Below, in pieces: positions 1-50,983 of a stretch of DNA of 50,983 nt. Numbering within the stretch: position 1 is the stretch's first letter; each line of letters opens with the position of its first letter. The translations under genes were made by a program, and so were the position numbers. Source of the DNA: a virus; the IMG/VR virus record IMGVR_UViG_3300027509_000004. One strand, 5' to 3'. The notes under the pieces were generated by a model, which made no database searches, was not told the origin of the DNA, and saw only the letters and a program-made list of their open reading frames with translations.

Positions 1-127
1 ACCAGACACCAAGGCTCTAAAGAGGAACGCTTACAAGCTATCCTTGAACCAGCTTACCAGAATTTATCTGTATGGCACTATAAGGGAGGCAACTGTCAGA
101 CCTTAGAGGAGGAGCTAATACTTAAGT
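1..127. repeat. 127-bp sequence identical to the window end (50857-50983); circular-assembly overlap or terminal redundancy
   Basis: Read directly: bases 1-127 equal bases 50857-50983 with no mismatch. The repeat lies inside the terL reading frame. Confidence 0.95.
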
Positions 128-5666: not shown

Positions 5667-5670
5667 TCCT

Positions 5671-6899: not shown

Positions 6900-7069
6900 G
6901 AGTTCTACTACTAGCCTTTACTATATACATCTAGCCGCAGGGGGTAAAAGGCCTCCAATGATTAGAGGGTCTTTTAAAACTTTTAAAGACGCCGAACGAA
7001 TTTTAATAAGATACCTGAAGAAGAACGAACGAGTTCTCTTTCCTTCCACTTACCCGGGAAATCCAAGAA

Positions 7070-9352: not shown

Positions 9353-9353
9353 A

Positions 9354-10020: not shown

Positions 10021-10021
10021 T

Positions 10022-19706: not shown

Positions 19707-20100
19707 AGTTAAAGAGCTCGCCGACATGCTGATGCGGATGCTCGCCCCTCTCATGCTTTCAATTATCATGGGCTTAGCTGTCTACGCGGTCGTCCCGCAA
19801 TGGCGTGAAAATGCGAAGCTCTTATTCGGCGGCATTATCTTTGGCACACTTGGAGGATTCATGGCGGGAGAGGTTGATGGGCTAGTGTTTATTAAAACTC
19901 CTATCACGATTGCCTCGACTGTGATGGGCCCTTCCCTTGTGCTTTGGGCGGCTAATATTAAAAACCCCGGACAATTTATCCAAGTTCTGCGGGAGTTCGG
20001 AGAAGCCCTAGCGACTATTCAAATCGGAAAATCAAGCGCCTCAAGACCAAAGGAGATTAACCATGATAATGTTGTCAAAGAAACCGAAGACTTAGCTTAA
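19696..20100 (+). CDS. holin-like membrane protein
   Basis: ATG 19696 has GGAG 5 nt upstream. About three TM segments and a charged C-terminus. The N-terminal extension in the ORF track (19516) overlaps the previous gene and is rejected. Confidence 0.45.
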   Translation: MPIEVKELADMLMRMLAPLMLSIIMGLAVYAVVPQWRENAKLLFGGIIFGTLGGFMAGEVDGLVFIKTPITIASTVMGPSLVLWAANIKNPGQFIQVLREFGEALATIQIGKSSASRPKEINHDNVVKETEDLA

Positions 20101-20121
20101 TAATAACTAAAGGAGACTATT

Positions 20122-20325
20122 ATGTCTAATAACTACAACTATACAGTTTTATGTGAGGTCAAAACCCACAAGATTGAATACAAAGGTGAGCCCTACGTGA
20201 AAGGCGATTATGTCCTTATTCCACGTCCACATGCCGTCCAGTACGGTAAGGCTGTACGAATTCTCACCCGTACAGAGCAACTCCAGAAAGAAAAGGAATG
20301 GAAAGATGCCGATAATAAAACATAA
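20122..20325 (+). CDS. hypothetical protein (67 aa)
   Basis: SD AAAGGAG lies upstream of the ATG. No motif recognised. Confidence 0.45.
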   Translation: MSNNYNYTVLCEVKTHKIEYKGEPYVKGDYVLIPRPHAVQYGKAVRILTRTEQLQKEKEWKDADNKT

Positions 20326-20740
20326 GCTTTCCAAGAGGTCTTTAAGGAGACTCCAAGGCCTTCACCCTGATATGGTGAAAGTTGTTAAAAGGGCCAGCAC
20401 TATTCTTAGGTACGGGGGCCACCCTTATGTGGACTTCTCTGTAGGAGAGTCTGTGAGGACTTTGGAACGACAAAGAAAGCTCATGTCTATAGGAGCGACT
20501 AAGACTATGAATAGTCGTCACCTCAGGGCTTCTAATGGCTACTCTCACGCAGTAGACCTTATTGCCCTCATAGACGGCAAGGTTACGTGGTCTTGGGAGA
20601 GCGGGGCTTTTGACATTATTGCAGATGCAATGAAACAGGCCGCCAGAGAATATCGTATCCCTATTCAATGGGGAGGCGACTGGAAGTCCTTTAAGGATGG
20701 CCCACACTTTCAACTACCTTGGAGGGAGTACCCTAAGTAA
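20306..20740 (+). CDS. endolysin, peptidase M15 (VanY / L-Ala-D-Glu peptidase-like)
   Basis: Zinc-peptidase motifs SRHL, HAVDL and DGPHFQ (H..D...H arrangement). Lies in the lysis block. Start set at the internal ATG 20306. Confidence 0.7.
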   Translation: MPIIKHKLSKRSLRRLQGLHPDMVKVVKRASTILRYGGHPYVDFSVGESVRTLERQRKLMSIGATKTMNSRHLRASNGYSHAVDLIALIDGKVTWSWESGAFDIIADAMKQAAREYRIPIQWGGDWKSFKDGPHFQLPWREYPK

Positions 20741-21111
20741 TGAAAAAATGGATTTTAAATCTTTTTGGGGGAGGAGCTGGCTGGCTGATAGTCTTGTTAG
20801 TGACTATAGGGCTGGCCTTCGGTGGTGGATTGTATTTAGAGTACAAAGACGCCATTAAAGATAAGGACGAAGCAGAGAAAGCTTTGAAACTGGAGAGGGC
20901 TAATAATGCTTCTCTTCGTATCACTGTCTCTTCTTTGGCACGAACAAACAAGAGGCGTGAAAACGCTGACGAACAGGACGGACAAGATGAAGGAGCTATC
21001 AATGCTACGACAGATTCGAACAGGTGTACTACTTCTGAGCCTATCGTTGTTGCCCTTGACGGGGTGCGCGACGAGTGGAATAGACGCTACACCGACCTTA
21101 ACGATGACTAA
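20740..21111 (+). CDS. i-spanin (Rz-like)
   Basis: N-terminal TM (WLIVLLVTIGLAFGGGLYL) followed by a charged coiled-coil region. Directly after the endolysin. Confidence 0.6.
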   Translation: MKKWILNLFGGGAGWLIVLLVTIGLAFGGGLYLEYKDAIKDKDEAEKALKLERANNASLRITVSSLARTNKRRENADEQDGQDEGAINATTDSNRCTTSEPIVVALDGVRDEWNRRYTDLNDD

Positions 21112-21313
21112 CGGGCAGTTCAACTGTAAGCCTGACCCTAAGCCTCCTGCTGAAGGGAATGAGTCGGACAAATCATTGGCTCTCTATATTGAAAGGTTAC
21201 AGTCTAGGGGGTGGGACTGTGCTGACCAGTTACATGAGATTAAGAACGTCCTTCAGGTAAATGGTATTGAGATAACGGACGTTGTAACAGAAGCACAAAT
21301 AGAAGAGGACTAA
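21002..21313 (+). CDS. o-spanin (Rz1-like lipoprotein), overlapping the i-spanin in another frame
   Basis: SD AAGGAG lies 6 nt upstream of the ATG. Signal peptide plus lipobox (LLLSLSLLPLTG|C). Overlaps the 3' third of the i-spanin gene. Confidence 0.6.
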   Translation: MLRQIRTGVLLLSLSLLPLTGCATSGIDATPTLTMTNGQFNCKPDPKPPAEGNESDKSLALYIERLQSRGWDCADQLHEIKNVLQVNGIEITDVVTEAQIEED

Positions 21314-21317
21314 CTAC

Positions 21318-21578
21318 GTGGCAGACTTCATAGGAAACACACAATTAAACCAAGACGACGGCTCAGGGTGGGAGGACGTTACAGGACTTTTCATCGGCAA
21401 GAATATAGTCATTCAAAATGTTCACCCTAAACACAACATAAGCATTCACCTAGGAGCTTCTGCTCCAGAAGATACAGGTTACGTGTTAACTCCTTTCAAG
21501 TCTGTAGAGGCTGCTGTTATCTCTAAGGTTTGGATAAAGGGCTTACCTTCTGAAGTACACATAAGTGAGACCTCTTAA
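21318..21578 (+). CDS. hypothetical protein (86 aa, GTG start)
   Basis: ORF only; no motif recognised. Confidence 0.35.
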   Translation: MADFIGNTQLNQDDGSGWEDVTGLFIGKNIVIQNVHPKHNISIHLGASAPEDTGYVLTPFKSVEAAVISKVWIKGLPSEVHISETS

Positions 21579-22143
21579 GATGGGAATACTTTCTAAACTC
21601 AATTCTATTAAAAATAACAATGGTTCGTCTGTATTAGCTGTCTTGGTAGACCAAGTACAAATAACTAACACTTCTGTAGAGTCTAGTGTTATGCCTCTAT
21701 CTTCTTCTAGAGGGACTAAAACTATTTTAGCAGACACTCTTCAAGTAGGAGATGTCATACGAATAACTGGCACGGGGGTCTATGGGACCCCTCTTGTAGG
21801 GACAGACGTGACTATCAGAACTAAGGCTAACTCTGTCGTGTTGTCCGAGGTTGTTACAGACGCCATTGTGAGTAACGCCGCTAATGATGCTTTTACGTTC
21901 ACCCTAGAGTCTTCTGTAATGTCTTTAGGGGTTTCAGGAGAAATTGTTTCAGGGGGGAACATTAGTTATCAGTCTTCCAGTGGACGTATACTTAATAACT
22001 TAGACAACAACGGGGTCCCTGTGACTGTAGACACCACCCAAGATATAGTCTTTGATGTTACCCTACAGTGGGACTCTGCCAGCACCGACAGGAATGTTGT
22101 TATGAGCACTTGCACGTTAGAGCTCTTAAGGCCTCCTTCTTAA
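21565..22143 (+). CDS. hypothetical protein (192 aa, S/T/V-rich)
   Basis: Last rightward ORF before the terminator. Beta-rich composition. Confidence 0.4.
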   Translation: MRPLKMGILSKLNSIKNNNGSSVLAVLVDQVQITNTSVESSVMPLSSSRGTKTILADTLQVGDVIRITGTGVYGTPLVGTDVTIRTKANSVVLSEVVTDAIVSNAANDAFTFTLESSVMSLGVSGEIVSGGNISYQSSSGRILNNLDNNGVPVTVDTTQDIVFDVTLQWDSASTDRNVVMSTCTLELLRPPS

Positions 22144-22162
22144 CCTCTTATTCGCAAACGAC

Positions 22163-22203
22163 AAAAAAATAAGCCCCCAAGGATTTCTCCAAGGGGGCTT
22201 TTT
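22163..22203. terminator. bidirectional rho-independent terminator at the convergence of the two arms
   Basis: A7 run (22163-22169), stem AGCCCCC (22172-22178) paired with GGGGGCT (22193-22199), then a T5 run. The structure reads as stem plus U-tract on both strands. Confidence 0.7.
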
Positions 22204-22209
22204 CGTGGG

Positions 22210-22335
22210 TTATTTTTCTTTGTCTAGTATCTTTTGGACCTCTAGGGAAATTTCCCGAAGGTCTGTGAGGATGTCTTCTATCTCCTTATTCTCTAGAAAT
22301 TTCTTATACAATTTTATAGCTGAAGTCAAGGACAT
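22210..22335 (-). CDS. small hypothetical protein (41 aa)
   Basis: Internal ATG of the 65-aa track ORF (MSLTSAIKLYKKFLENKEIEDILTDLREISLEVQKILDKEK), helical and charged. Weak support. Confidence 0.25.
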   Translation of the reverse strand: MSLTSAIKLYKKFLENKEIEDILTDLREISLEVQKILDKEK

Positions 22336-22447
22336 GGTCCCCTTCATTATGAATCCACCTTCTTCCTTCTTCTTTGCTGTTAAAGAGCTTTTTCTTGATT
22401 GTGCCATCAGTATAGGCTATCGTGAACTCTATGTTTTGAAATCTCAT
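22304..22447 (-). CDS. small hypothetical protein (47 aa)
   Basis: ATG 22447 with GGAG 7 nt upstream. Translation MRFQNIEFTIAYTDGTIKKKLFNSKEEGRRWIHNEGDHVLDFSYKIV. Below the size cut-off of the ORF track. Confidence 0.35.
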   Translation of the reverse strand: MRFQNIEFTIAYTDGTIKKKLFNSKEEGRRWIHNEGDHVLDFSYKIV

Positions 22448-22575
22448 GTTAAAACTCCTGTGTTGCTTTACATTTATGGACTTCGTGTCCGGGCCAAATA
22501 ATTACGTTCTCACACTGTGGGATAGTTGAACATCCTCCAACAAGTAAGAAGAACGAGAGCACCATTCCGAAGATT

Positions 22576-24258
22576 TTACGCTCCACATGAACCTCCTACC
22601 CCTGTAATGTCACACACATCGTGTGTCTCAAGGGCTTCTTCGAAAGTCTTTCCTAGTTTAACTACAGCTTCTCCATAGGCAACAGAGGTAAGGGGTTGTC
22701 CTCCTCGGGCCCCATCAGGGTAGCAAGTAAACCCTCTAAGTCGTGAAGCATACTTAGCGAGCAAGTCTCCAAACGGCTTAACAGTGTCTTCGTTGTTTGT
22801 TTTGGACCCCCAACTAGGAAGGTTAATTGTAGAGCTAATTGACATATCAACGTAGTCCTGTATGTCTGCTTGGAATTTAAGTCTTCGCTCGGGGTCATTC
22901 GCCAAGTCGATTGAGGTGTCAATTTCATCAGGGTTTACTCCATATATGTCTATTAATTCTTGTGCCGTTCCATCGACGACGTACTGGTAATGCCACCGTG
23001 AGCCACCTTTGAGGAAACGTCTTTTATAAGAGACTGCATAGAGAGGTTCAATTCCTGTAGTCGTACCAGCGAGGATTCCAATGCTGCCTGTGGGGGCGAT
23101 TGCCCTAACAGCGATTGGTCGAGATACTCCAAGCTCATCCGCAAAGCTGATAGCTGTTTTGTCACTAACTCCACGGTACGTCTGGAGCCACGAGTGTAGT
23201 TCGGGCGTAACTTCATATTTATGTCCTTTCTTTAAGAGCCATTCATGGATACCCATGAGGCCTAGTCCTAAGCGTCTGTTTCGTTCCCTAACCTCTGAGA
23301 CCTTACGGTAGGGGAGGTCAGCTCTAAGAGTGCCACAAAGTAGGAACTTTGTTGCGAGCTCAACAATCGTTGCCATTTCAGCAATTGAATCCACTCGTCC
23401 AAGGTTAATTGAGCCAAGATTACAGACATCTGAGTCGTCGGCTGAGGTGACTTCTGTACAAGCGTTGCGTAGCGTCTCATTTTCCTTGTCAAAGAAGTTG
23501 AAACTAAACCCCGGCTCGCCAGTCTTGAGAGCTTGTCCCACGTTTTTGAGAAATGTGTCACCGTAATCTCCTGTGGCCCAATAATTTGTAAGCCATTTAG
23601 TGTCGTAGTTAAGGCTAATATTGGTCATATCAAGAGGGGCGGGGAAGTTGAAGTCTTCTTGTTTAATGTCCCAAAGAGACTTTCCAGTAGAGCCTACGGC
23701 CATGTTATGCCAGTCTTTGGCGGTCAGGAAGTCTTGAGCGTCTCCGTGTTCCCAATTGAGGGAGGCATAGATAGCAGACCTTCGGGAGCCTCCTTGCATG
23801 ACATTACGACCAATTTCGTTAATCATCTGCATCTTGGGTATAGGGCCACTAGCTGTGCCACCTGTGCGTCCAAGGGGGGAGTCTTTAGGGCGATACACTG
23901 AGTAATCAATTCCAATACCGCCACCAGTCATAAGACAGGACTCGGAGCGCCATGATAGATTAGCCCAGTCTTCACGGGTGTCCTCTTCGGCTTTAAGGAG
24001 ATAACAGTTGTTAAAGAACTTAGCAGGTCTCCCTGCATAGTATAAGTAGCGCCCACCGGGGATGAACTTTAACTGTCGCATAATCTCGGTAAGCTGAGAC
24101 TTCTCGTCGGGTGTCATATCCTCTCGACACACATCCTCGACAAGGGTTCCACAAAGTTCATCCCAAGTTTCAGCGCCCTCATGGGAATACTTTTGGTTGA
24201 ATATGTCCTCGGAGAATTTACTCCTAAAGACGGGGTTTTTGTTACTTCTGTATTTCAC
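22576..24258 (-). CDS. nrdJ: ribonucleotide reductase, class II-type (single-chain)
   Basis: RNR active-site signatures NACTEV and CNLGSINL, and a C-terminal Cys pair. At 560 aa with no beta-subunit gene in the genome, the B12-dependent class is favoured. Confidence 0.75.
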   Translation of the reverse strand: MKYRSNKNPVFRSKFSEDIFNQKYSHEGAETWDELCGTLVEDVCREDMTPDEKSQLTEIMRQLKFIPGGRYLYYAGRPAKFFNNCYLLKAEEDTREDWANLSWRSESCLMTGGGIGIDYSVYRPKDSPLGRTGGTASGPIPKMQMINEIGRNVMQGGSRRSAIYASLNWEHGDAQDFLTAKDWHNMAVGSTGKSLWDIKQEDFNFPAPLDMTNISLNYDTKWLTNYWATGDYGDTFLKNVGQALKTGEPGFSFNFFDKENETLRNACTEVTSADDSDVCNLGSINLGRVDSIAEMATIVELATKFLLCGTLRADLPYRKVSEVRERNRRLGLGLMGIHEWLLKKGHKYEVTPELHSWLQTYRGVSDKTAISFADELGVSRPIAVRAIAPTGSIGILAGTTTGIEPLYAVSYKRRFLKGGSRWHYQYVVDGTAQELIDIYGVNPDEIDTSIDLANDPERRLKFQADIQDYVDMSISSTINLPSWGSKTNNEDTVKPFGDLLAKYASRLRGFTCYPDGARGGQPLTSVAYGEAVVKLGKTFEEALETHDVCDITGVGGSCGA

Positions 24259-24433
24259 TCAAATATCTTTCTGCTTCTTCTTTTGTTAGGAACAAAACTT
24301 TCTCTCTTGTGGGTGTCACACAATGGAGCCAGAAAAGGTTAGGCTTATACTGTGGATAATATATTGTCCAAGCCAAATATCCTGACGTTGTCTGACAATC
24401 TCTTTCCTTAATTCTATACTTCATATTTGTCAA
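24242..24433 (-). CDS. hypothetical protein (63 aa)
   Basis: ORF overlaps its neighbours by a few codons (operon packing). Confidence 0.4.
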   Translation of the reverse strand: MTNMKYRIKERDCQTTSGYLAWTIYYPQYKPNLFWLHCVTPTREKVLFLTKEEAERYLSEIQK

Positions 24434-24785
24434 ATTCGGCTAAAAGTCTAAGAGCCTCTTCTGAGTCTCCTATGATGAGTTCATCTAAAGTTCTAGAATA
24501 CATTTCTTTTAAAGTGTTAAGAGCTTTTTCTTGTTTTTTCAAATCATATGTTATGTTATGAGAGTAGTGAGACAAATCAAAGAAATCATTCAAATACGAA
24601 GGGTAGTTTCCATGAAGTTTTTTCTTTCTTAATTTTAAAGTGCCTTCTTTAAATTCTTTTTGGAGCTTCTCTAAAGTAAGGGGATTGGCCTCCTTTTTAA
24701 CAAAGGATGTTCTAATTTTTTTCTCCTTTTTAACTAACATCTCTGTTAGTCTTTGGCGGATATGTTTAATTTGCATTTGATTCAT
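24414..24785 (-). CDS. hypothetical protein (123 aa, K/E-rich helical)
   Basis: ORF only. Confidence 0.4.
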   Translation of the reverse strand: MNQMQIKHIRQRLTEMLVKKEKKIRTSFVKKEANPLTLEKLQKEFKEGTLKLRKKKLHGNYPSYLNDFFDLSHYSHNITYDLKKQEKALNTLKEMYSRTLDELIIGDSEEALRLLAEFDKYEV

Positions 24786-24789
24786 TGTA

Positions 24790-24972
24790 TTAATCCCATA
24801 ATGAATGTTTATAATCGTCCCACAAGTAATCTCTTGCGGGGGTAATAGTTACGTCGTCAAGGCCACACTCAGGACACGTTCCAGCCCACACTGTGTGGTA
24901 TCCCGGAACAGGCTTACCGCCAAGGGCGATGGAGCAAGGCCTACAAAGGTCTTCCTTGGGCATGTTAGACAT
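24790..24972 (-). CDS. zinc-ribbon protein (60 aa)
   Basis: CRPC ... CPEC four-cysteine arrangement. Confidence 0.45.
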   Translation of the reverse strand: MSNMPKEDLCRPCSIALGGKPVPGYHTVWAGTCPECGLDDVTITPARDYLWDDYKHSLWD

Positions 24973-25255
24973 GCTCAGGGTTCCATTCTTCTGTTTGTTT
25001 AGCCTTTTTGATAATGGCCTTTAAGACTTTCTCTGGGAGAGACTTCCATTCAAGAGCAAATCCTGTTCCAGCTCTTAAGTCTTCTTTTGAGACAAACTTT
25101 TTGAACCAATCAGGTGTCTTGGAATAATTTCTAAGCAAAATCAAGCAGCAAGTATCGTACATATTGTCACTTGCAAGGCTTTTATCTAATTCATAATATC
25201 CGTAAGACCAAAGAAGATAGTCGTCAATTCTATTCAGGAGGTATTTAACGTCCAT
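24965..25255 (-). CDS. hypothetical protein (96 aa)
   Basis: Start moved to ATG 25255, just after the upstream stop. YGYYELDKSLASDNMYD weakly recalls the YYxxDxPxxSDxxYD motif of NAD-ligase domain Ia; this is very tentative. Confidence 0.35.
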   Translation of the reverse strand: MDVKYLLNRIDDYLLWSYGYYELDKSLASDNMYDTCCLILLRNYSKTPDWFKKFVSKEDLRAGTGFALEWKSLPEKVLKAIIKKAKQTEEWNPEHV

Positions 25256-25257
25256 CT

Positions 25258-25623
25258 TTACTCCCCTGTTCCTTTGCATTCTGAACAATCACCTACAGCA
25301 GCTCCGCATTGAACTTCTCCGTATCCTTTGCATCTTTTGCACAGAACAGGAAGACTGTCTATAATAATCCCACAACGGGCTCTTACATGGCTTAAGGGGT
25401 GAGCCCCTGAGTCCTTGTCCTCAGTGATGCCCTTCTCGTACTCTTTCAAGTGTCGTTTAAGGGCTGCTAGGTCTTTCTTAAGGTCTCGTTCTTGGTCAAT
25501 CCAATCAAGGTGCTCCCCGTTCTTAGAGGCTCCGTCTTTGTAGACAAGCTTCTCGTCGTCGAGAACCTTAGGGGAGGGCCAGAAGGAAATCTTATGGATG
25601 ATGTATGTGGACATTTTACTCAT
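25258..25623 (-). CDS. protein with a DnaJ-type cysteine-rich zinc finger
   Basis: The C-terminus holds two CxxCxGxG repeats (CKRCKGYG, CSECKGTG), the unit that forms one zinc centre in DnaJ. Confidence 0.5.
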   Translation of the reverse strand: MSKMSTYIIHKISFWPSPKVLDDEKLVYKDGASKNGEHLDWIDQERDLKKDLAALKRHLKEYEKGITEDKDSGAHPLSHVRARCGIIIDSLPVLCKRCKGYGEVQCGAAVGDCSECKGTGE

Positions 25624-25975
25624 TAAACCAACTCCCAGTCAAGAGAACATTGTCTGGTATATGAACTGATTTCAAAATCTCTATCAGTTCTTCCTTATTC
25701 TGTCCAGCGAGTCCTGTTCCTACAGGGGTGAACTTAAAAGTCAGTTCCGGATTTTCTAAGGCATACATAAAGAAGGTGTCTATATTATCTACTACCTCTA
25801 AAAAAGGAAGGGAGGCTAGTTTTTCATCCTTAGTGGGTAAGGCATAACTATCTCCTGTTCGGCCTTCCCCTATTCCATACTCAGCCCCGTAGTGGTTTCT
25901 AGCATGAAGGGCGGCCCCTTTTCCATGTCGGCCTGAAAGGTTTGAGCCAAATACAAAAATAATGTTATTCGTCAT
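25616..25975 (-). CDS. conserved phage protein, function unknown (Rossmann-like GSNxxGxHGxGAA motif)
   Basis: FVFGSNLSGRHGKGAALHA...GDSYALPTKD is a motif I recognise as recurrent in phage and bacterial proteins, but I cannot assign it to a named family. Confidence 0.4.
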   Translation of the reverse strand: MTNNIIFVFGSNLSGRHGKGAALHARNHYGAEYGIGEGRTGDSYALPTKDEKLASLPFLEVVDNIDTFFMYALENPELTFKFTPVGTGLAGQNKEELIEILKSVHIPDNVLLTGSWFNE

Positions 25976-26141
25976 CTTCAGTCTCCATCATTCCAATCTC
26001 TTCTTTAAGGTCTTCTAGGTGGTCTGACAGGAGGTCCATAAAGGACCCCCCGTCGAACAACACTGAGAACTCCGTATCGAGGAAGTCAACAAGCTCAGCA
26101 GGGGTGAAGTGTTGACTAATCCTCTCAAGAATTGCTTCCAT
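25965..26141 (-). CDS. small acidic protein (58 aa)
   Basis: ATG 26141; the stop overlaps the next start (GATGACGAATAA). Strongly acidic (D/E-rich). Below the track cut-off. Confidence 0.35.
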   Translation of the reverse strand: MEAILERISQHFTPAELVDFLDTEFSVLFDGGSFMDLLSDHLEDLKEEIGMMETEDDE

Positions 26142-26239
26142 GTTATGTTCCTTTTGTTGGTGGCTTGGTGTTGTTAAAGGCCGCTATGAGTAACAATATA
26201 GAGACTGCTATAACAGACCAGTCAAGGGTAGTCATGTTG

Positions 26240-26434
26240 CTATACATTAGGCTTAATCTTTTTCAAAGCTTGTTTTGGATATATTTGAACAGACCCTTTT
26301 TCTGTTTCACTCTCAACAGCGTAACCTTCTTTAGTTAGAGAAGAGGAATAAAATCCTACGACTGTTCCTGTCCAAGAAGAGCCTTTTATTTTTGTAACCC
26401 TATCTCCTAAAGAAAAAGTAAACTCTTTATACAT
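26240..26434 (-). CDS. dfrB: type II dihydrofolate reductase (R67 / DfrB family, SH3-like fold)
   Basis: [51 protein letters not shown] aligns by eye with the R67 core [51 protein letters not shown] (recalled from memory). K32, W38 and S65-V66-Q67-I68-Y69 are conserved. At 64 aa the size fits. Confidence 0.8.
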
Positions 26435-27164
26435 ATTCAGGCTTTCCTATGCTTTTATCGTGAGTACGCTCAGACATCCAAGTGCCACAAGAATTACATC
26501 TAAACCGTCTGTAACGGAATGAACGTGTCTCACGATAGCCTCGTGCTTGGAGGTCATGTGAACCACAGTTAGTACATCCTGTAGATTTCTCTAAATCAAT
26601 CGGGTGGGCTTTAATCCAAGGTAAGAGCTTTTTGTAAAGCTTCTCGGTTAGATTAACGTCTTGAAGGTTATACTTCTTCATGAGCTTCCATGCACGAGGA
26701 TTGTCCTCTAACATGCAACCTTTAAAGAGCTTCATATAACCTGCTCCGGGAGTCTTACGCCCTAGACCTAGTGTGTCCCCTAAAGAGTCCAGACGGTTAG
26801 AAGTATTCGCAAAGTTTTTACGCGCAATCTTCAAGGTGTCAATGGTTCTAAAAGGAGCTGGGGGAGTAAGTCCGTGTCGGATGAATAAAGCGTTAGCTTT
26901 CTTAACGTCGAATTTATCTACGTTATGCCCTATGACAACATCAGCTTCGTCGAACAGCCCCCAGAGGGTTTTGACCATTTCAATATCGTTGTAAGGGTCT
27001 CCTTCGGGGGGTCGTACAAAGTAGGTTTTCTTTTGCCCGTACCATTTATAGGCGAAGCAAATCATTTGCCAGTCTTTGGTCACTTCAATTATATTAGTGT
27101 TCCAAGTAGACCAAGCGTAACCCGTAATAGGGGTAGTTTCAATATCGTATATAAGTATTTTCAA
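26427..27164 (-). CDS. DEDD-type 3'-5' exonuclease (RNase H-like fold) with C-terminal zinc ribbon
   Basis: Exo motifs [13 protein letters not shown] and YNLQDVNL. C-terminal CTNC...CNSC. Confidence 0.6.
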
Positions 27165-27205
27165 AATTTATCCTTGTTCAGCGGAAGAGAGACGACAGCA
27201 AAGGT

Positions 27206-27772
27206 TTATTCTGCCCACGGTGTCAGAGGAATCGCCCCTATCGATAATGGCCTGGGTTTCAATATCCTACTTAAAAACCATTGTTCTCTCCAAGGGCTAT
27301 CTGGGTTAGGGACAGTGGTTATATAAAGAGAGCCGGGGAGACTGGCTACTGTTCCTTTCGGTTTAGTGAGGGCGTTATAGATGTGTAAACGGAGTTCTTT
27401 ATCTTCAACTTGTACCGCCCGACAAACATCGGTGGCTATGACATACTTATCGAAGTGAGCCTTATCAGAAGTTATTATAATGTTGGCCAAATCTTTACGG
27501 TAGCTTATGAAGTTAGAGGTCTTGTATTTATCGTCTCCGTCAATCTCAAACCCTTCTTCCCATAGAACATATGCTAACTCGGAGTAGCCTTGTAGACCTA
27601 CATACACGAGATAGTCATAGTCTGTATCTTCTTTGACGGTGGCAACAGAAGTCTCGCGGGAGCCCATAGGGTAGATATGGGCCTTAGCTTTATGGAGAGC
27701 TCTACGGACATTCTCATTAAGACCTACAGGTAAGTCTTTCTCGTCTGTTATGGTGTACTTTCTCTTAGACAT
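27206..27772 (-). CDS. predicted Pol-beta-superfamily nucleotidyltransferase
   Basis: YPMGSRETSVATVKEDTDYDYLVYV fits the hG[GS]-x(9-13)-DxD minimal nucleotidyltransferase signature. Confidence 0.4.
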   Translation of the reverse strand: MSKRKYTITDEKDLPVGLNENVRRALHKAKAHIYPMGSRETSVATVKEDTDYDYLVYVGLQGYSELAYVLWEEGFEIDGDDKYKTSNFISYRKDLANIIITSDKAHFDKYVIATDVCRAVQVEDKELRLHIYNALTKPKGTVASLPGSLYITTVPNPDSPWREQWFLSRILKPRPLSIGAIPLTPWAE

Positions 27773-27987
27773 TAGTATTTCCTTTCTATGGTATGCCCTA
27801 AGTGGGTTAGAATATCTCGGTAAACCTCGTCAAGACTATATCCAATCAAGGAGGTACATCCAGCATTTGGCTCATAGTCTCCAAAACTTTTACCGTCAAT
27901 AGTGACTTTGAAACCTTCCTCGTAGTTAGAACCACAAGTGTCACAGTCTGTTTCATCAGATAAATCTTCGATTACTATTTTAACCAT
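27772..27987 (-). CDS. hypothetical protein (71 aa)
   Basis: ORF packed with start/stop overlap. One CDTC pair. Confidence 0.4.
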   Translation of the reverse strand: MVKIVIEDLSDETDCDTCGSNYEEGFKVTIDGKSFGDYEPNAGCTSLIGYSLDEVYRDILTHLGHTIERKY

Positions 27988-28346
27988 TTGTCTGGTATCC
28001 TTTTATGTGACCACAGAAACCCTGCCTTGTCGGCCCACATTCCATAAGTAGTTTTTGAGTTTTTATTGAGCTTGTTTTTTGCGTTTTGGAAGACAAACCG
28101 TATGTCTAGCTCTGGATGCTGTTCTTTAATTGCTTTCATCTTACGACGGTCAGCGGGTTTGAGAACACCTTTAGCTTCTATTCGTATTCCGTTGGGGAGG
28201 ATAAAATCAGGAGTATAGTTTGATACGAGCACGTAGGAGTATTTTTCAGACTCGTATTCGTATTCTATTTTCTCCTTGGAGAGTTGAGAAGCAAGAGACT
28301 CTTCAAACTTGCTCCTGAAATTATGTTCTTTATTCTTGGTCGTCAT
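27975..28346 (-). CDS. endonuclease I (T7 gp3-type Holliday junction resolvase)
   Basis: FRSKFEESLASQL..IEYEYE..YTPDFILPNGIRIEAKG..DRRKMKAIKEQHPELDIRFVF parallels T7 endonuclease I (FRSGLEDKVSKQL..YTPDFLLPNGIFVETKG..DRKKHLLIREQHPELDIRIVF). Confidence 0.85.
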   Translation of the reverse strand: MTTKNKEHNFRSKFEESLASQLSKEKIEYEYESEKYSYVLVSNYTPDFILPNGIRIEAKGVLKPADRRKMKAIKEQHPELDIRFVFQNAKNKLNKNSKTTYGMWADKAGFLWSHKRIPDKWLK

Positions 28347-28632
28347 CTAAGGACACCACATAGTCTATATTGCTAAGAGGAGCCATGAATTTGACATCTT
28401 TAGGGTCTTCTCCGAAGATGGCGAAGACAGACTGAACAGAGAGTTGACCATGAACTTCTAGGACTGTGGTAGCACCTAAAGGTGTTGTCACGCTGATGCG
28501 CCAGTCTTTCATCATTAAAAGGTCTTCCCCCGAAGTGTTATCAGCGGCTACCTTTGGTTGGAAGCCTACAACGTTAGTTTTGCTGGGTTTAGCCCCAGTC
28601 TCTTTATTATCGTTGGGTGTTTCGTCAGTCAA
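28330..28632 (-). CDS. hypothetical protein (100 aa)
   Basis: ORF only. Confidence 0.4.
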   Translation of the reverse strand: MTDETPNDNKETGAKPSKTNVVGFQPKVAADNTSGEDLLMMKDWRISVTTPLGATTVLEVHGQLSVQSVFAIFGEDPKDVKFMAPLSNIDYVVSLDDDQE

Positions 28633-28638
28633 GTCTAA

Positions 28639-29535
28639 TTATCCTTTTTGTTTGGTTAGGAGGCCTTTAGGTGGTGGTGCTTCAAACACCTTAGGTAGTC
28701 GGTCTACTTTTGTGAGGTATTTAGGCCCGTTAGAGTAGAGGAAAGTTCGGAGGCCAGCTCCGTCATTAGCGTCTCTCCAGCAGTGGTATTTAAATGGACA
28801 GTAAGAACACCCCCGGGAAAGTCCCATGTTTCCAGACTTCCCTTCAGGAATTGTCTTAAAACACCTAGACGGGACTCGTAGGGTATCGGATTGGACGTTC
28901 TTTTGTCTACTGATGTGACCGCTAACGTCAACCGATAGCAGTTCTTCTTTTGAAAATAAACAGAGACATAGCTGTCCCGACACCTTATTGATACTGAGGA
29001 ACCCACCGCCCAAAGTTTCTTTTTCGAGAGCTTTATAATAGGAAGCCAACTGGGGTATATAGTTAAATCCGTCATCGTCCCGTATGGAGCCGTCTTTGAA
29101 CTTGAGAAATCCAAACGGACTGGCGCTTTTAACGTCAATAACATACCCATCAATGATAGCGTCAATGTGCCCTGTAACTCCATCGACTTCGACTTCTCGT
29201 TGTTCGTGGGTAACTTCATGACCAGCTTCCTTCGCTAAGTATAGTATCAATTCTTCGAGAATGTGTCCGTATTGAAACTTCATCAATACTGCTGCTGAAT
29301 ACTCTTCTCGGGGAGCATGAGTAAGCTCGTAATGAAGCTGTCTGGAGGGCTTTCCTACTGCGGATAACCTAAGCCTAGGCACACGAGGGGAAAGGGGTTG
29401 AGCGAGGCTCTCAGCTAGGTTAGCGGCGACTTTAAGGCCGTATTCAGCTAGGAGTTTTTCCTCTGAGATGGCCCCACCAGTGAGCAATCTTTCGATGTCA
29501 CTGATGAGGGTCTCTATGGAGGGCTTTTTAGGCAA
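28639..29535 (-). CDS. PD-(D/E)XK nuclease, RecB/Cas4-like, with C-terminal Cys cluster
   Basis: GHIDAIIDGYVIDVKSASP (D...D-x-K), QLASYY (QxxxY) and CSYCPFKYHC (CxxCx5C). TTG start with no clear SD. Confidence 0.6.
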   Translation of the reverse strand: MPKKPSIETLISDIERLLTGGAISEEKLLAEYGLKVAANLAESLAQPLSPRVPRLRLSAVGKPSRQLHYELTHAPREEYSAAVLMKFQYGHILEELILYLAKEAGHEVTHEQREVEVDGVTGHIDAIIDGYVIDVKSASPFGFLKFKDGSIRDDDGFNYIPQLASYYKALEKETLGGGFLSINKVSGQLCLCLFSKEELLSVDVSGHISRQKNVQSDTLRVPSRCFKTIPEGKSGNMGLSRGCSYCPFKYHCWRDANDGAGLRTFLYSNGPKYLTKVDRLPKVFEAPPPKGLLTKQKG

Positions 29536-29648
29536 AGAACAGTCTTTGGAGAGTGTCTACAATTATATAGACATATAAAACTAAGAGAGATTCTCCTACA
29601 TTATTTTCAAACTCCTCCAGAAGCAGTTTGTATAAATTTTTCATAATA

Positions 29649-30131
29649 TTAAGTCTCTTCCTCGTTCTCGTCCCAGACTTCATTATCTGGTTCTGCTAGG
29701 GGCTCACCTTCGTCGTACTCAAAGTCTTCACGAGGGGCGACAGGAACATGTTCCCATACTTGGACCTCTCGGAGGGCTGGTTTACGCCAAGGTGTTTTGT
29801 TGAAGACTCCTTCACGAATGTCGAAACGGACATTAACGACAGAGCCATTACCAATGAGGACTTCAGAGTCCCAATCACGTCCGTAACGGTCTTTTACACG
29901 AGGAGGAGTTAAGAGCTCTCCGTCACGTGTTTTTTCAGGTTGCACAAACTTGATGTAAGGAAGGTCGTAGCCTTCTTTCTCTTTAATCTTGTTACCAAGT
30001 TTTTCTTCTTTCAGAGCGTCAACAACTTCAGGCTCGATGAGCAAGTCCATTGTATACTCTTTAGCAGTTGCGCCGTAGTTGTCCACGGGCTTAAGTATTT
30101 TTGCCCATTGGGCGATACCTTTAATAATCAT
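29649..30131 (-). CDS. single-stranded DNA-binding protein (T7 gp2.5-like)
   Basis: OB-like core with IGNGSVVNVRF and an acidic C-terminal tail (EPDNEVWDENEEET). Lies next to the polymerase and helicase genes. Confidence 0.55.
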   Translation of the reverse strand: MIIKGIAQWAKILKPVDNYGATAKEYTMDLLIEPEVVDALKEEKLGNKIKEKEGYDLPYIKFVQPEKTRDGELLTPPRVKDRYGRDWDSEVLIGNGSVVNVRFDIREGVFNKTPWRKPALREVQVWEHVPVAPREDFEYDEGEPLAEPDNEVWDENEEET

Positions 30132-30202
30132 AGGTGATGTTTTCCATTATGTTTTGGATTGGTTGGTGGTTTAATAGAACTCTTTAATAAGCTCTATAGG
30201 GT

Positions 30203-30231
30203 ATAGTAACACATTGAATCTTAATTGTCAA
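30203..30231 (-). promoter_or_regulatory. candidate sigma70-type promoter for the SSB gene
   Basis: On the minus strand: TTGACA (30231-30226), 17 nt, TACTAT (30208-30203), in the intergenic leader of 29649..30131. Confidence 0.35.
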
Positions 30232-30566
30232 GGGTTATTTTGAGATATTTTGTGTTCTTCTAAGATGTCCAATATCGGGACATACTTTTTGTCCACTTCA
30301 ATTTTAAGTCGGTCACAGTCCCACCACAAAAGAGATAAAGTTTTTTCCTCTTCCTTCATCAAATAGACTAGAGCAGCCGCCTTTAAGGCGTCATTTTCCT
30401 CTAAGGCCTTTTTCAAGGAGACGTTTCTTTTCCGCATAAAGAGCGGAAAGGTTTTTGACTCCTCTAGGGTTTTTTCTTTATGCTCCTTATCTCTTAATAA
30501 AATAAAAATAAAAAGAGGAGAGAATAGAATTAAAACAGGTAGCCCTACAAGCAGAAAGTCCTTCAT
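30228..30566 (-). CDS. membrane-anchored hypothetical protein (112 aa)
   Basis: Start set at ATG 30566 (MKDFLLVGLPVLILFSPLFIFILL, an N-terminal TM). The longer track ORF overlaps the upstream small gene. Confidence 0.4.
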   Translation of the reverse strand: MKDFLLVGLPVLILFSPLFIFILLRDKEHKEKTLEESKTFPLFMRKRNVSLKKALEENDALKAAALVYLMKEEEKTLSLLWWDCDRLKIEVDKKYVPILDILEEHKISQNNP

Positions 30567-30570
30567 AGCC

Positions 30571-30750
30571 CTAACTCCAAGCCCACTTAGGAACCTTGTT
30601 GAAGACTCCTCTGATAACCCATATAGGGTTGTGACGGGTCTCACTTAACCCCTCCATGAAGGGGAGAAGTTGCCAGAGGTTGTATTTTCCGTCAGGCCGT
30701 AGGGTAAATTCTTCGGCGAGAGGCCGGGGGTGTTTTGTTTTAGTGGTCAT
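30571..30750 (-). CDS. small hypothetical protein (59 aa)
   Basis: ATG 30750 directly after the upstream stop; ends TAG at 30571. Below the track cut-off. Confidence 0.3.
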   Translation of the reverse strand: MTTKTKHPRPLAEEFTLRPDGKYNLWQLLPFMEGLSETRHNPIWVIRGVFNKVPKWAWS

Positions 30751-30751
30751 C

Positions 30752-30961
30752 TTATTTGATTCCTTTCAAGAATTCTCTTCCTTTTTCTGTGTGTCCGCCG
30801 TTGAAGGTTATCATCCCTAAGTTTCTTAGACGAGTGACACATACATTAAAAGCAGCTCCCGCTATGACTGGTGTTTCTGTAGGGAACCCGTATAAGTCTT
30901 TCAAAACATCTAGTTCGTATCCTTCAATTTTAATGTGTGTCTGCCCAGTTTGGTCCGACAT
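30752..30961 (-). CDS. hypothetical protein (69 aa)
   Basis: ORF overlaps the 3' end of the polymerase gene by 32 nt. Confidence 0.4.
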   Translation of the reverse strand: MSDQTGQTHIKIEGYELDVLKDLYGFPTETPVIAGAAFNVCVTRLRNLGMITFNGGHTEKGREFLKGIK

Positions 30962-32870
30962 TATAGTCTCCTTCCATTAGTACGTTAAAGCCCAGCAGTT
31001 GGCCCGCGAGTGTGATAGATTGACAATAAACTTCTCCACACTCTTTAGCGTAGTTTTTCTCCGATTCCATCTGAACCTCGTCGTGGACGTCCAGAACTTT
31101 TTTACACCTGTCGAGGTCCCAAGGAGTTTCCATCTTAGCTCCGTCAAGAGCGTTTATAGAGTATCCGTAGGCGAGGATAGTTGCAAGCTTCATTAAGATT
31201 CCGCCAGCGGACTGACAGAGGTAGTTAAGGGCGGCGTGAGGACTCGGGCAACGAACAAAGCCACCATCAATAGTCTCAATCCATCCTTCTTTAGTCGAGT
31301 GGTACTCACTCTGAACTTTCTCTGTTAGCTCTTTAAGACCCGGAACATTCTCCATAAGAGTGGCACGTACAACGATACCGACTTTACGGTTCTTGCCCAT
31401 CATCTTTCCAAGCTTAGGGTCAGAAGCCCCGTAGAGGAACGCATAGAAGAGGGCCTTAAGGATTTGACGATAACCGTTAGATTCTTCGTCTTCTTTAGGC
31501 TTCCCAGCGTCTCTCCATTTACGGAGATTCTCAGAGATTTCTTTTAACCCTAGAGCTTCGTAGACAGCAATAGCGTTAGCTGTATGGAAGTCAGAGGTTA
31601 GGAACTCTTCCGCAGCAGGATTATCCAAGTAGTGCATCAATACCCGGCCTTCAAGGCCTTTAGCGTCAATCCCTACTAGAAGAGACCCTTCAGAGACAGT
31701 CCACAATTCACGGAGCTCACGTCCATAAGGCTTGTCAGCGGAACAGATGTTAGCGGTATTAGGTGTGGTGTGTCTCATGCGTCGAGTACCTGCCCCACAC
31801 GAGAAGACGCGGCCATGAATACGACCATCGTCTTTCAAGTGCTTCAACCACTCCTCAAGAGACCTGATACGTCCAGAGTAGAGCATCCAATCAGAGATTA
31901 GTGCTACTTCCTCTAGTCCAGATTTTTTGGCAAAGGCTAGGAGTTGGTCTTCAGTTACCTTGGGATTTCCGCCCCCTCCTTTCGGAGTTTTGGGTGTGAA
32001 TTCTGTCGGCTTCCAACCCAGAGCGAGTAGTCGTTCCACTCTTTGCTTGGGGGAACCAATATTGAAATCCTTGTAATCCCATGTTCGGTACATCTTTCCG
32101 CTATTGCTGAAGGTAAGTCGAGAATATCGTTCAAGATGTTTTTTATATGAGGCGTAGGGGGTTCCATCTTGTCGAAGTCGATAGTGATATTCACCTTGGA
32201 GGACAAGTTTGGGAGGGAAGACGCTATGAATGCGTTTCTCCACGTTGGCTTTAAGAGACTGGAGCTCCGCCAAGAGAATAGTCGCTCGTCGTTCGTCGAA
32301 CTTGACCCCATTAGCTGTTTGCTCATCAATAATTTTCCTTATTTTGTGTTCAATTTCACATGAAAGCTCACTAAAACCTTTAAGCTTCATTCGCCCAGAA
32401 AGACGTTTGAAGAGGGTGGCAGTGATTTCTACGTCCTGCTCACAATAGCTTAACATCTCTTCAGTGAAGTGAGAGAAGTCGTCAAACTCTATTTTTTGGT
32501 TGCCGAATCTCGCACCCCAAGCAGAGAGGCTGTGACCACCACGCATGTGCGGGTCATATAGATAACTAAGAGTGAGGGTATCCACAATATCATTGATATT
32601 AATAGAAGTCCCAGCAAGAGCATTGAGCGCAGGAATGTCATAAGAGATTGCATTGTGTCCGACCCATCTTGTTGTGGGCTTATCCTTTAACGTATTAATG
32701 AAATCTGCTAAGTATCCGTTCTCGATGTCAGCGGGACGGAAGGACCAAGTGTCCTCCTCACCGTAAATTTCTTTGATTACAACACACCATATTTTCGTAG
32801 GTGTGAGGCTATCGGCTTCAATGTCGATAGCATAGTAGTTTAGTCCGTTGTCTGGGTGGTTTAGGTACAC
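30930..32870 (-). CDS. DNA polymerase, family A (T7-like) with 3'-5' exonuclease domain
   Basis: Exo motifs AIDIEADS, GHNAISYD and YCEQDVEIT. Polymerase motifs GIDAKGLEGRVL (A), KALFYAFLYGAS (B) and VHDEVQME (C). Confidence 0.85.
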   Translation of the reverse strand: MYLNHPDNGLNYYAIDIEADSLTPTKIWCVVIKEIYGEEDTWSFRPADIENGYLADFINTLKDKPTTRWVGHNAISYDIPALNALAGTSININDIVDTLTLSYLYDPHMRGGHSLSAWGARFGNQKIEFDDFSHFTEEMLSYCEQDVEITATLFKRLSGRMKLKGFSELSCEIEHKIRKIIDEQTANGVKFDERRATILLAELQSLKANVEKRIHSVFPPKLVLQGEYHYRLRQDGTPYASYKKHLERYSRLTFSNSGKMYRTWDYKDFNIGSPKQRVERLLALGWKPTEFTPKTPKGGGGNPKVTEDQLLAFAKKSGLEEVALISDWMLYSGRIRSLEEWLKHLKDDGRIHGRVFSCGAGTRRMRHTTPNTANICSADKPYGRELRELWTVSEGSLLVGIDAKGLEGRVLMHYLDNPAAEEFLTSDFHTANAIAVYEALGLKEISENLRKWRDAGKPKEDEESNGYRQILKALFYAFLYGASDPKLGKMMGKNRKVGIVVRATLMENVPGLKELTEKVQSEYHSTKEGWIETIDGGFVRCPSPHAALNYLCQSAGGILMKLATILAYGYSINALDGAKMETPWDLDRCKKVLDVHDEVQMESEKNYAKECGEVYCQSITLAGQLLGFNVLMEGDYNVGPNWADTH

Positions 32871-36178: not shown

Positions 36179-36179
36179 C

Positions 36180-38319: not shown

Positions 38320-38353
38320 AACCGCGTATACTCCTTTTAAGTTTTATTTCTAT

Positions 38354-39163: not shown

Positions 39164-39206
39164 GATGATAGATTCCTTTCAAAGGGAAGAGGGGTGATTT
39201 AAAAGA

Positions 39207-40280: not shown

Positions 40281-40315
40281 ATAGTCTCCATTTTGTTGAT
40301 GTGGTTAATATTAGT

Positions 40316-41137: not shown

Positions 41138-41144
41138 TTTTCTC

Positions 41145-41172
41145 TTGACAAATCTGAAATATGTGGTATAAT
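41145..41172 (+). promoter_or_regulatory. consensus sigma70-type promoter P2 (TTGACA-16 nt-TGgTATAAT), antisense to the surrounding operon
   Basis: TTGACA 41145-41150 and TATAAT 41167-41172, with an extended -10 TG at 41164-41165. It sits on the plus strand between two minus-strand genes. Confidence 0.5.
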
Positions 41173-41216
41173 ACCTTTAAGGGGCAGAGTTAAGGAACCT
41201 AATAATAGGCACTAAC

Positions 41217-49537: not shown

Positions 49538-50983
49538 GCGTAGACAATAAAACAGACATTATACGAGAAGCAGCGGAGAACTCTCTTGAGACATTCATTA
49601 CCCTTGTCGCCCCGCACAACGTCATGGGACACGTACATAGGGAGCTCTGCTCTTGGTGGACAAAGGATGACAGCAAAGACGCCCAGCTTGTCTTGCTCCC
49701 CCGTGACCACGGTAAGTCTCGATACCTTGCTTACTGGTGCGCTTGGCAGATTACCAAGAACCCAGCCATCCGTATCCTTTACATATCGGCCACCTCAAAC
49801 TTAGCAGAGAAACAGTTAAAGTTCATCAAGGACATCTTGACCTCTAAGATTTATCGGAGGTACTGGCCGGAAATGATAAATAAGAAAGTGAGTGAACGTG
49901 AGAAGTGGACCAACTCAGAGATTTGTGTGGACCACCCTAAACGGGCTAAAGAAGGTATTCGTGATTCTACTGTATTTACTGGGGGTCTCACTACTTCTCT
50001 TACTGGGCTCCATTGCGATGTCGCAGCCTTGGATGACGTCGTAGTACAAGAGAACGCCCAGACAGAAGAAGGCCGTAACAAGGTTAAAGCTCAATACTCC
50101 CTCCTAGCCTCCATCCAAGGAGCACAAGGAAGAGAGATGGCAGTAGGCACTCGTTACCACCCTCTCGACCTCTACAACGATATGCTCAACATGAATGAAG
50201 ACCTCTACGATGAAGTAGGGGAAGTCATTGGTCAACAAGCTATCTACGAAGTCTTCCAGAGACAAGTAGAAGACCTAGGAGACGGCACAGGAGAATTCCT
50301 TTGGCCTCGCCAACAGAGAGCGGACGGAGCTTGGTTTGGTTTTAATAGACAAATCTTAGCTAAGAAGAGAGGCAAATATCTTGACAGAACCCAGTTCAGG
50401 TCACAATACTACAACGACCCTAATGACACCACTGACGCCCCTGTCGGAAGAGAATACTTCCAATACTACGACAGAAGACACCTCGAACATATCGACGGGT
50501 CGTGGAAAATCAGGACACACAAAGGTGTGGATAGTCGTGTTATTGGTCAGCCTCGTAAGCTTAATCTTGTGGCTTCTGTTGATTTTGCTTATAGTCTCGG
50601 TAAGAGAAGTGATTACACAGCTATTGTCGTTCTAGGGATAGACTCTGAAAGAAACAGATACGTCCTCGATATACGCAGGTTCAAGACCACAAAGATTTCT
50701 GAATATTTTGACCACATCTTAGAGCTCTACAATAAGTGGGGATTTAGAAAACTAATAGCAGAGACTAACGCAGCCCAGAAGGCTATCGTTGACTCTCTCA
50801 AACACGACTATATAAGGCAGTACGGGTTAAACCTTTCTGTCATCGAACACAAGCCAACCAGACACCAAGGCTCTAAAGAGGAACGCTTACAAGCTATCCT
50901 TGAACCAGCTTACCAGAATTTATCTGTATGGCACTATAAGGGAGGCAACTGTCAGACCTTAGAGGAGGAGCTAATACTTAAGT
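49522..50983 (+). CDS. terL: terminase large subunit, N-terminal and central part (ORF open at the window end, continues at 1-279)
   Basis: Own translation: ..LLPRDHGKSRYLAYW (Walker A-like), CDVAALDDVV (Walker B) and ASVDFAYS..YTAIVVLG (RNase H-like nuclease). No stop occurs before 50983. Alternative starts are GTG 49534 and ATG 49426. Confidence 0.85.
   Translation, partial: MVACVSVDNKTDIIREAAENSLETFITLVAPHNVMGHVHRELCSWWTKDDSKDAQLVLLPRDHGKSRYLAYWCAWQITKNPAIRILYISATSNLAEKQLKFIKDILTSKIYRRYWPEMINKKVSEREKWTNSEICVDHPKRAKEGIRDSTVFTGGLTTSLTGLHCDVAALDDVVVQENAQTEEGRNKVKAQYSLLASIQGAQGREMAVGTRYHPLDLYNDMLNMNEDLYDEVGEVIGQQAIYEVFQRQVEDLGDGTGEFLWPRQQRADGAWFGFNRQILAKKRGKYLDRTQFRSQYYNDPNDTTDAPVGREYFQYYDRRHLEHIDGSWKIRTHKGVDSRVIGQPRKLNLVASVDFAYSLGKRSDYTAIVVLGIDSERNRYVLDIRRFKTTKISEYFDHILELYNKWGFRKLIAETNAAQKAIVDSLKHDYIRQYGLNLSVIEHKPTRHQGSKEERLQAILEPAYQNLSVWHYKGGNCQTLEEELILK
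50857..50983. repeat. second copy of the 127-bp junction repeat
   Basis: Identical to 1-127. Confidence 0.95.

Follow-up and report, generated by a model that had tools for sequence, protein, structure and literature searches.

The window analysed here, a stretch of 50,983 nucleotides of viral DNA (IMG/VR record IMGVR_UViG_3300027509_000004), carries on its minus strand a short gene for a type II dihydrofolate reductase (DHFR) of the R67/DfrB family. This gene and the features to which it is related below are:

26240..26434, minus strand: dfrB-like gene encoding a 64-aa type II (R67/DfrB family) DHFR (ORF, Pfam, PDB, fold)
26442..26448, minus strand: putative Shine-Dalgarno-like AGGAAAG, 7 nt 5' of the dfrB ATG (read from ...GCATAGGAAAGCCTGAATATG)
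26427..27164, minus strand: upstream gene for a 245-aa DnaQ-like / RNase_H_2-superfamily exonuclease (Pfam PF13482, E 3.7e-12)
26143..26247, minus strand: downstream 34-aa hydrophobic ORF, putatively coding (sequence only)
22576..24258, minus strand: ribonucleotide reductase (RNR), most probably class II (B12-dependent, NrdJ-like) (Pfam, PDB, NCBIfam)
1..127 = 50857..50983, no strand: exact terminal direct repeat of 127 bp (sequence comparison)

The dfrB-like ORF runs over 64 codons from ATG to TAG, with the sequence quoted in the preliminary description of this DNA. Its start overlaps the stop of the exonuclease gene by 8 nt (ATGTATAA, 26427-26434), which suggests that translation of dfrB is coupled to that of the exonuclease gene, and its stop is overlapped by 8 nt by the ATG of the 34-aa ORF (ATGTATAG, 26240-26247). 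As neighbouring ORFs overlap it on both sides, dfrB is tightly packed in a co-directional operon, and the overlap of the 34-aa ORF with its stop leaves no space for an integron attC site. The start/stop overlaps at the two junctions are nearly identical, so that the dfrB and 34-aa products both start with Met-Tyr. A scan for promoters and terminators gave nothing specific beside dfrB. The GC content of the gene is 33% vs 45% for the genome; a reading as a compositional island or recent transfer is nevertheless unconvincing, as 200-nt windows of the same operon span 0.30-0.50 GC.

The phage genome

The window represents a complete, circular-mapping genome (about 50,856 bp), as is shown by the terminal repeat and by permuted copies elsewhere: a Logan and a JGI assembly both contain this contig, each starting at a different point. 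Besides DfrB and the DnaQ-like exonuclease, for which NCBIfam Pol III epsilon matches were weak, the minus-strand arm encodes the RNR, an Nlig-Ia protein, a dGTP_diPhyd_N-domain protein, an A1S_2505-family protein, a T7-type endonuclease I, a PD-(D/E)XK nuclease, PolA, a T7-type primase-helicase and a RimK-like / amidoligase / COOH-NH2 ligase / GATase / GGACT cluster. The RNR matches Pfam Ribonuc_red_lgC (E 1.4e-45) and, among PDB entries, best the B12-dependent RNR of T. maritima (1e-28), with NrdJ_Z as its best NCBIfam match (2.9e-57, below the cutoff of that model), and is the sole other recognisable dNTP-synthesis enzyme of the genome. The preliminary description placed dfrB between an exonuclease and a class II RNR; the exonuclease gene indeed adjoins it, but the RNR gene is found farther downstream, separated from it by 1,982 nt that contain eight small ORFs.

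Two small proteins are encoded in this interval. One, of 121 aa (25258-25623, minus strand), matches PF18909 (E 2.3e-9), the N-terminal domain of dATP/dGTP diphosphohydrolases, and carries Cys-rich CxxC motifs after this domain, with no MazG or HD catalytic domain attached; the PF18909 domain occurs in phages that remodel purine dNTP pools. The other, of 107 aa (24965-25288, minus strand), stands alone and matches PF22745 (E 2.4e-7), the NAD+-binding Ia domain of NAD-dependent DNA ligases; a DNA ligase catalytic domain is found nowhere in the window genome. Further along the arm, a seven-gene cluster (35084-41666, minus strand) comprises a RimK / S6-glutaminyl-transferase-like gene (phrog_2599), Amidoligase_2, an unannotated 274-aa ORF (phrog_11055), a phiEco32-type COOH-NH2 ligase, two glutamine amidotransferases and a gamma-glutamyl cyclotransferase, and resembles a system that ligates peptides or metabolites.

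On the plus strand, nine large ORFs in 288-19256 (up to 760 aa) gave no Pfam match at E<=1e-3 and are presumably the terminase, portal, capsid and tail genes, while an M15 peptidase (20210-20740) is the sole annotated plus-strand gene in the scan, which omits ORFs of 1545, 850 and 681 aa. The virion module is very divergent. Pfam scans of the ORFs of at least 176 aa revealed neither an integrase nor a repressor domain, from which we take the phage to be probably virulent, and the genome has no tRNA genes. Megablast of positions 20000-32000 against 50,697 phage records returned no match, so that the phage is without close relatives among those sequenced. The nearest sequenced phages are marine podoviruses with 32-35% identity in PolA (highest 34.5%, pelagiphage HTVC103P), and the phage probably represents a podovirus-like, very divergent lineage, adding one complete genome of this kind to the phages with a minimal type II DHFR.

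Family membership, active-site residues and selection

Profile, solved-structure and fold evidence agree that the 64-aa product is a phage-encoded R67/DfrB-type DHFR, as had been proposed from the letters of the DNA. Pfam PF06442 (DHFR_2) matched with 78.3 bits vs a gathering score of 25 (E 3.9e-22, profile positions 21-77 of 78), and in a phmmer search against all PDB chains the significant matches were R67 entries only (E 8.5e-18 to 6.6e-17), aligned by HMMER without gaps to residues 4-60 of the window protein. Significant alignment to DfrB proteins in a real search had been named as one of the points on which the assignment would stand or fall; at 78.3 bits, and E values around 1e-17 against the PDB, the match goes well beyond what chance would give. 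An AlphaFold2 single-chain model computed with 57 homologues (pLDDT 89.5) has five strands, predicted to form an SH3-like barrel that superposes on R67. With this predicted structure the best seven PDB matches in Foldseek were all R67 (TM 0.84-0.96, rmsd 0.6-0.7 Å), followed by generic SH3/chromo-like folds at E~0.02, about five orders of magnitude weaker. The ORF gave no match to the FolA-type family Pfam DHFR_1. For NCBIfam NF000331 (trim_DfrB) it scored 85.3 bits, below the allele-level cutoff of 137; passing DHFR_2 and falling below trim_DfrB, the window protein is thus a family member rather than a named resistance allele. That it belongs to the DfrB family and has the R67 fold is as good as certain.

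With an offset of 17 (residue i of the window protein is residue i+17 of R67) the window protein is identical to DfrB1 at 33 of 55 positions (60%, R67 residues 23-77), bearing out the expectation that more than half of the positions match R67. The residues listed in the preliminary description are likewise in place: K15 corresponds to K32, W21 to W38 and S48-V-Q-I-Y52 to S65-V66-Q67-I68-Y69. In R67, K32 binds negative charges of the ligands, W38 lies at the dimer-dimer interface and is required for tetramerisation, V66-Y69 is the active-site motif, and W45 is reported to be replaceable with structure and function being kept (PMC9835603). K32, W38, Y46 and S65-VQIY-69-P70 are identical in the window protein, R67 and DfrB1, B2, B3, B4 and B10, whereas the window protein differs from R67 in having Glu62 for His and Phe45 for Trp.

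The Glu at position 62 (E45 of the window protein) had been correctly read and singled out as a departure from R67, but it is not a peculiarity of this protein. In an alignment of 106 database relatives with DfrB1, B2, B3, B4 and B10, translated from plasmid records, position 62 is Glu in 86 and His in 19 of the relatives, and in copies from phage contigs it is Glu in 82 of 83; position 45 is Phe in 98 relatives and Trp in two. Both H62E and W45F are therefore the consensus of the environmental clade and not anomalies. The near-universal Glu62 of phage copies, as opposed to the pH-sensing His62, predicts that their tetramer assembly would respond to pH unlike that of R67. A compensatory covariation of positions 62 and 63 (His-Pro in clinical alleles, Glu-Lys here), as a possible sign of another salt bridge at the interface, was considered and rejected, as His-Lys (17) and Glu-Pro (15) are both common.

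W38 is present in 105 of the 106 relatives and in all 83 phage copies. The latter, compared without gaps over residues 8-57, also keep K32 without exception (83/83) and VQIY in 79 cases, contain no stop codons, and have a median pairwise dN/dS of 0.19 (448 pairs with 0.1<dS<1.5). In phages, dfrB is thus under purifying selection.

The VQIY motif has been reported solely from the catalytic cluster I of the family; homologues of this cluster that were tested, at 38-55% identity to DfrB1, form tetramers and have kinetics like those of DfrB1 (2025 MBE study, PMC12486381). At 60% identity to DfrB1 the window protein lies above these tested active homologues, which makes it very likely active; by homology to them we are confident, short of certainty, that it would form the tetrameric pore and reduce dihydrofolate (DHF) with NADPH. 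DfrB enzymes are slow, with a kcat of about 1 per second (PMC12486381). The window protein consists of the SH3-like core, having nine residues before the conserved Gly vs 26 in R67. The N-terminus of DfrB1 was reported to be necessary for well-folded expression in E. coli (PMC9835603), and the short N-terminus of the window protein may matter to its function.

Relatives in clinical alleles and in other phages

The window protein is 60-62% identical to DfrB1, B2, B3, B4 and B10. These five are mutually 85-100% identical, all have His62 and form a clade of their own in a neighbour-joining tree of 111 sequences, in which they rank 100th-107th by distance from the window protein; the tree is built on a 55-column alignment, which is too short for deeper history. 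The environmental sequences nearest the clinical alleles (up to 76% identical) are His62 types. Clinical copies adjoin intI1 and other cassettes, whereas the window gene lies in a phage operon, outside any integron gene-cassette context. The preliminary description had proposed the phage as a possible reservoir or evolutionary source of DfrB-type genes and had suggested a phylogeny as a check. The tree, with the clinical alleles in a separate clade far from the window protein, makes this proposal a weak one for the window gene, as do the 60-62% identity and the score below the allele cutoff. Given this distance, the separate clade and the His62 of the nearest environmental sequences, the window gene is not the proximate source of the clinical alleles.

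DfrB genes in phages are not new, being already annotated in GenBank and described in the literature. By tblastn we found homologues in 26 of 50,697 GenBank phage records, many annotated as dihydrofolate reductase and several as 'R67 dihydrofolate reductase'; relatives are present on 286 viral contigs of IMG/VR, and PHROGs lists the family as phrog_31682, 'unknown function'. An exhaustive HMMER search gave 1,563 cluster representatives at 50% identity, many of them multi-domain. Among the best 150 representatives (P0107-P0235), proteins of 100-300 aa that carry the DfrB core at their N- or C-terminal end predominate, and in metagenomes a stand-alone DfrB of ~65 aa is one architecture among several. 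In the literature, dfrB2-like genes with 67% identity were reported on freshwater viral contigs in a 2020 virome paper (PMC7265639), two phage homologues, DfrB-H3 and DfrB-H4, were assayed in 2023 (Lemay-St-Denis et al., PMC9835603), a 2025 paper on dfr genes of lytic phages counted eight dfrB vs 1,953 FolA-type genes (1,961 in total), and the 2025 MBE study catalogued 20 viral homologues (PMC12486381).

The assayed proteins share VQIY, K32 and W38 with the window protein. Unlike the stand-alone 64-aa core found here, both have several domains: DfrB-H4, from a Vibrio phage, is 218 aa long and DfrB-H3, from a Pseudomonas phage, 167 aa, and their genes lie beside DNA methyltransferases in a Mu-like myovirus and a temperate siphovirus, respectively, and not in a T7-like replication operon. 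Vibrio phage 1.030.O encodes a 218-aa protein with Glu62 whose C-terminal core is 73% identical to the window protein; its gene is located in the tail/baseplate region, about 2 kb from a DNA methylase. This protein, NVP1030O_25, is probably DfrB-H4, an identification made from the description '2 kb from a DNA methylase', which fits, and not from an accession. DfrB-H4, whole or as the excised SH3 segment, gives high trimethoprim resistance in E. coli, up to 600 ug/ml (MIC >=600 ug/ml; PMC9835603).

A second informative relative is UOF80610.1, annotated 'R67 dihydrofolate reductase' and 69% identical to the window protein, from Podoviridae sp. ctOsX528 (MW202697.1), a 45-kb circular genome from spring water. 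Like the window it has the GATase / COOH-NH2 ligase / amidoligase cluster, a helicase, PolA, DfrB, an exonuclease and a class II RNR, with eight genes in common and no ThyA, ThyX or FolA. It differs in that the common genes are just 23-40% identical, the genome is 6 kb smaller and DfrB lies between PolA fragments, the order being PolA fragment, DfrB, PolA fragment, exonuclease, RNR II. DfrB is here flanked by two CDSs (3696-4856 and 5275-5820, within 3696-5820 of locus L102) that are both annotated as DNA polymerase, indicating that PolA is split with the small gene at the break. The seven-gene ligation-type cluster of the window also occurs in MW202697.1, minus the cyclotransferase.

Of 89 further viral loci with DfrB (80 in IMG/VR, nine others), all of the VQIY clade closest to the window gene, 83 have nothing in common with the arm of the window besides DfrB. 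One locus, a 60-kb contig (L009), encodes in this order a class II RNR, three small genes, a DfrB 80% identical to that of the window, dCMP deaminase and MazG. Homologues of the exonuclease (35-40% identity) are found near DfrB both there and in MW202697.1. Most copies lie among small early genes with no nucleotide-metabolism neighbours. Contexts formed by a series of such small genes occur in temperate or Prim-Pol phages and in some cases have HNH endonucleases beside them. In L014 (9493-10982) HNH homing-type endonucleases are encoded on both sides of DfrB, and in Rhizobium phage RHph_TM3_3_3 (L016, 8270-9231) an HNH endonuclease gene lies upstream of the homologue, which hints that the small DfrB gene could spread with mobile HNH endonucleases. 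The phage of locus L093 is a distant relative of the window phage (primase-helicase 41%, PolA 32% identical). Conserved synteny was sought in it and dismissed: DfrB lies upstream of the primase gene there and not downstream of PolA, so that its position is not conserved.

Role in the phage and alternative explanations

The preliminary description had recognised no thymidylate synthase, and this holds in a genome-wide check with ThyA and ThyX profiles. Pfam Thymidylat_synt, Thy1 and DHFR_1 gave no match in the window ORFs scanned (non-nested ORFs of at least 176 aa except three giant virion genes, and most smaller ORFs), and six-frame tblastn with E. coli ThyA and FolA and roseophage SIO1 ThyX, one seed per family with the ThyX seed being the least sensitive of the three, found nothing in the window. 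As the window is a complete genome, the absence of ThyA, ThyX and FolA applies to the genome as a whole. With the same tblastn none of the three was detected within 10 kb on either side of DfrB in the 89 other loci; two complete genomes, those of Podoviridae sp. ctOsX528 and Pseudomonas phage PS-1, were likewise negative, as was Vibrio phage 1.030.O over the 40 kb covered out of 45.8 kb.

Hydride transfer takes place in R67 within a central pore lined by K32 and the S65-VQIY-69 strand, where NADPH and dihydrofolate lie next to each other. In the phage, we propose, dfrB would be expressed as part of the long operon for replication and nucleotide metabolism on the minus strand, its translation being coupled to that of the exonuclease gene, and the 64-residue SH3-like protomer would assemble into an R67-like homotetramer. 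DfrB could then re-reduce the DHF that host ThyA produces during the surge in dTMP demand, which would keep the tetrahydrofolate (THF) pool from limiting phage DNA synthesis; insensitivity of the enzyme to trimethoprim would be a by-product. Tetramer formation, catalysis and coupling to host ThyA are steps that we infer. We consider this explanation as a whole, an active tetrameric DHFR that re-reduces DHF from host ThyA, probable, and for the role itself, re-reduction of this DHF during phage DNA synthesis, we see a somewhat better than even chance. It is the most economical role, as the phage raises the dNDP supply with its own RNR, yet has neither a thymidylate synthase nor FolA.

A similar arrangement is known from phage T4, whose Frd, like other FolA-type phage DHFRs, is encoded among deoxynucleotide-synthesis genes and has the same pathway-level function, although fold and evolutionary origin are unrelated to those of DfrB. 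In T4, Frd is accompanied by a phage-encoded thymidylate synthase, Td; the window phage lacks the second member of such a pair. For viral DfrB proteins, recycling of DHF for a viral ThyA has been proposed, with ThyA being present in merely three of ten cluster I viral genomes (PMC12486381). The logic in the ThyA-linked cases (cluster II and the three of cluster I) is the same, DfrB serving dTMP synthesis without FolA. Unlike those, the window phage and the 89 loci have no viral ThyA nearby, so that any coupling must be to the host enzyme, and the published picture of a DfrB serving the virus's own ThyA misses most phage copies. The absence of thymidylate synthase and FolA across 89 loci of the VQIY clade, to which four complete or near-complete genomes can be added, and the near-universal Glu62 of phage copies go modestly beyond the literature.

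The link to dTMP rests on enzyme chemistry and not on gene linkage, since no thymidylate synthase is found at the 89 loci and the neighbours are mostly unrelated to nucleotide metabolism. ThyX releases THF rather than DHF, and the coupling would therefore fail in a host that uses ThyX. Deletion of FolA-type DHFR genes from two lytic phages left burst size and latent period unchanged in rich medium (PMC12466917), and the fitness benefit may be small or conditional. With gene linkage giving no support and these deletions having no effect on burst size, the proposed role is the less certain part.

One alternative is an active DHFR with a purpose other than dTMP synthesis via host ThyA: it might provide THF for purines, fMet-tRNA or glycine/serine, replace a host FolA that is lacking or shut down, or guard replication from antifolates. 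In bacteria, however, DHF is known to arise in quantity only from the ThyA reaction, and the metabolic contexts of phage DfrB, where present, are those of deoxynucleotides (RNR II, dCMP deaminase, MazG). We regard such a purpose as unlikely, despite several observations in its favour: the 89 loci and three complete or near-complete genomes alike show no linked thymidylate synthase, homologues are found in both virulent and temperate phages whose architectures are unrelated, and FolA-type phage DHFRs shielded reproduction under trimethoprim while burst size was otherwise unchanged (PMC12466917).

In a broader and quite unlikely scenario VQIY-type DfrB would belong first and foremost to phages, as a 'DHFR-only' auxiliary metabolic cassette that has no thymidylate synthase partner and hops between unrelated phage backbones; the clinical, integron-borne His62 alleles would have been recruited from such phages and prophages. 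The enzyme would then act on host-derived dihydrofolate or have an unrecognised substrate or role.

The SH3-like domain could also be non-catalytic in phages, binding a nucleotide, a cofactor or a protein, with DHF reduction being incidental. The family has non-catalytic clusters (III-V) to which phage proteins belong (PMC12486381), many relatives are domains within proteins of 100-300 aa, such as the 218-aa protein of Vibrio phage 1.030.O, and thymidylate synthase linkage is missing. We nevertheless hold this to be improbable, because K32, W38 and VQIY, needed for the tetrameric pore and its ligands (PMC9835603), are near-invariant, VQIY is reported from no cluster but the catalytic one (PMC12486381), and the window copy is a stand-alone core whose close relatives confer trimethoprim resistance (PMC9835603).

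That dfrB is instead a transferable resistance cargo gene (moron) selected by trimethoprim, as might be thought of a family best known for such resistance and flagged as ARGs in virome studies (PMC7265639), is highly improbable given that ORFs of 176 aa or more show no integrase or repressor domain, that the 8-nt overlaps on both sides in the operon leave no space for attC, that identity to the mobilised alleles is 60-62%, outside their clade and below the NCBIfam cutoff, and that environmental phages widely carry members of the clade, kept under purifying selection, which points to a role for the phage itself. For resistance surveillance the finding is reassuring, the gene being distant from mobilised alleles and residing in a probably non-lysogenic phage; if expressed in a bacterium it would, by analogy with its assayed relatives, probably confer trimethoprim tolerance.
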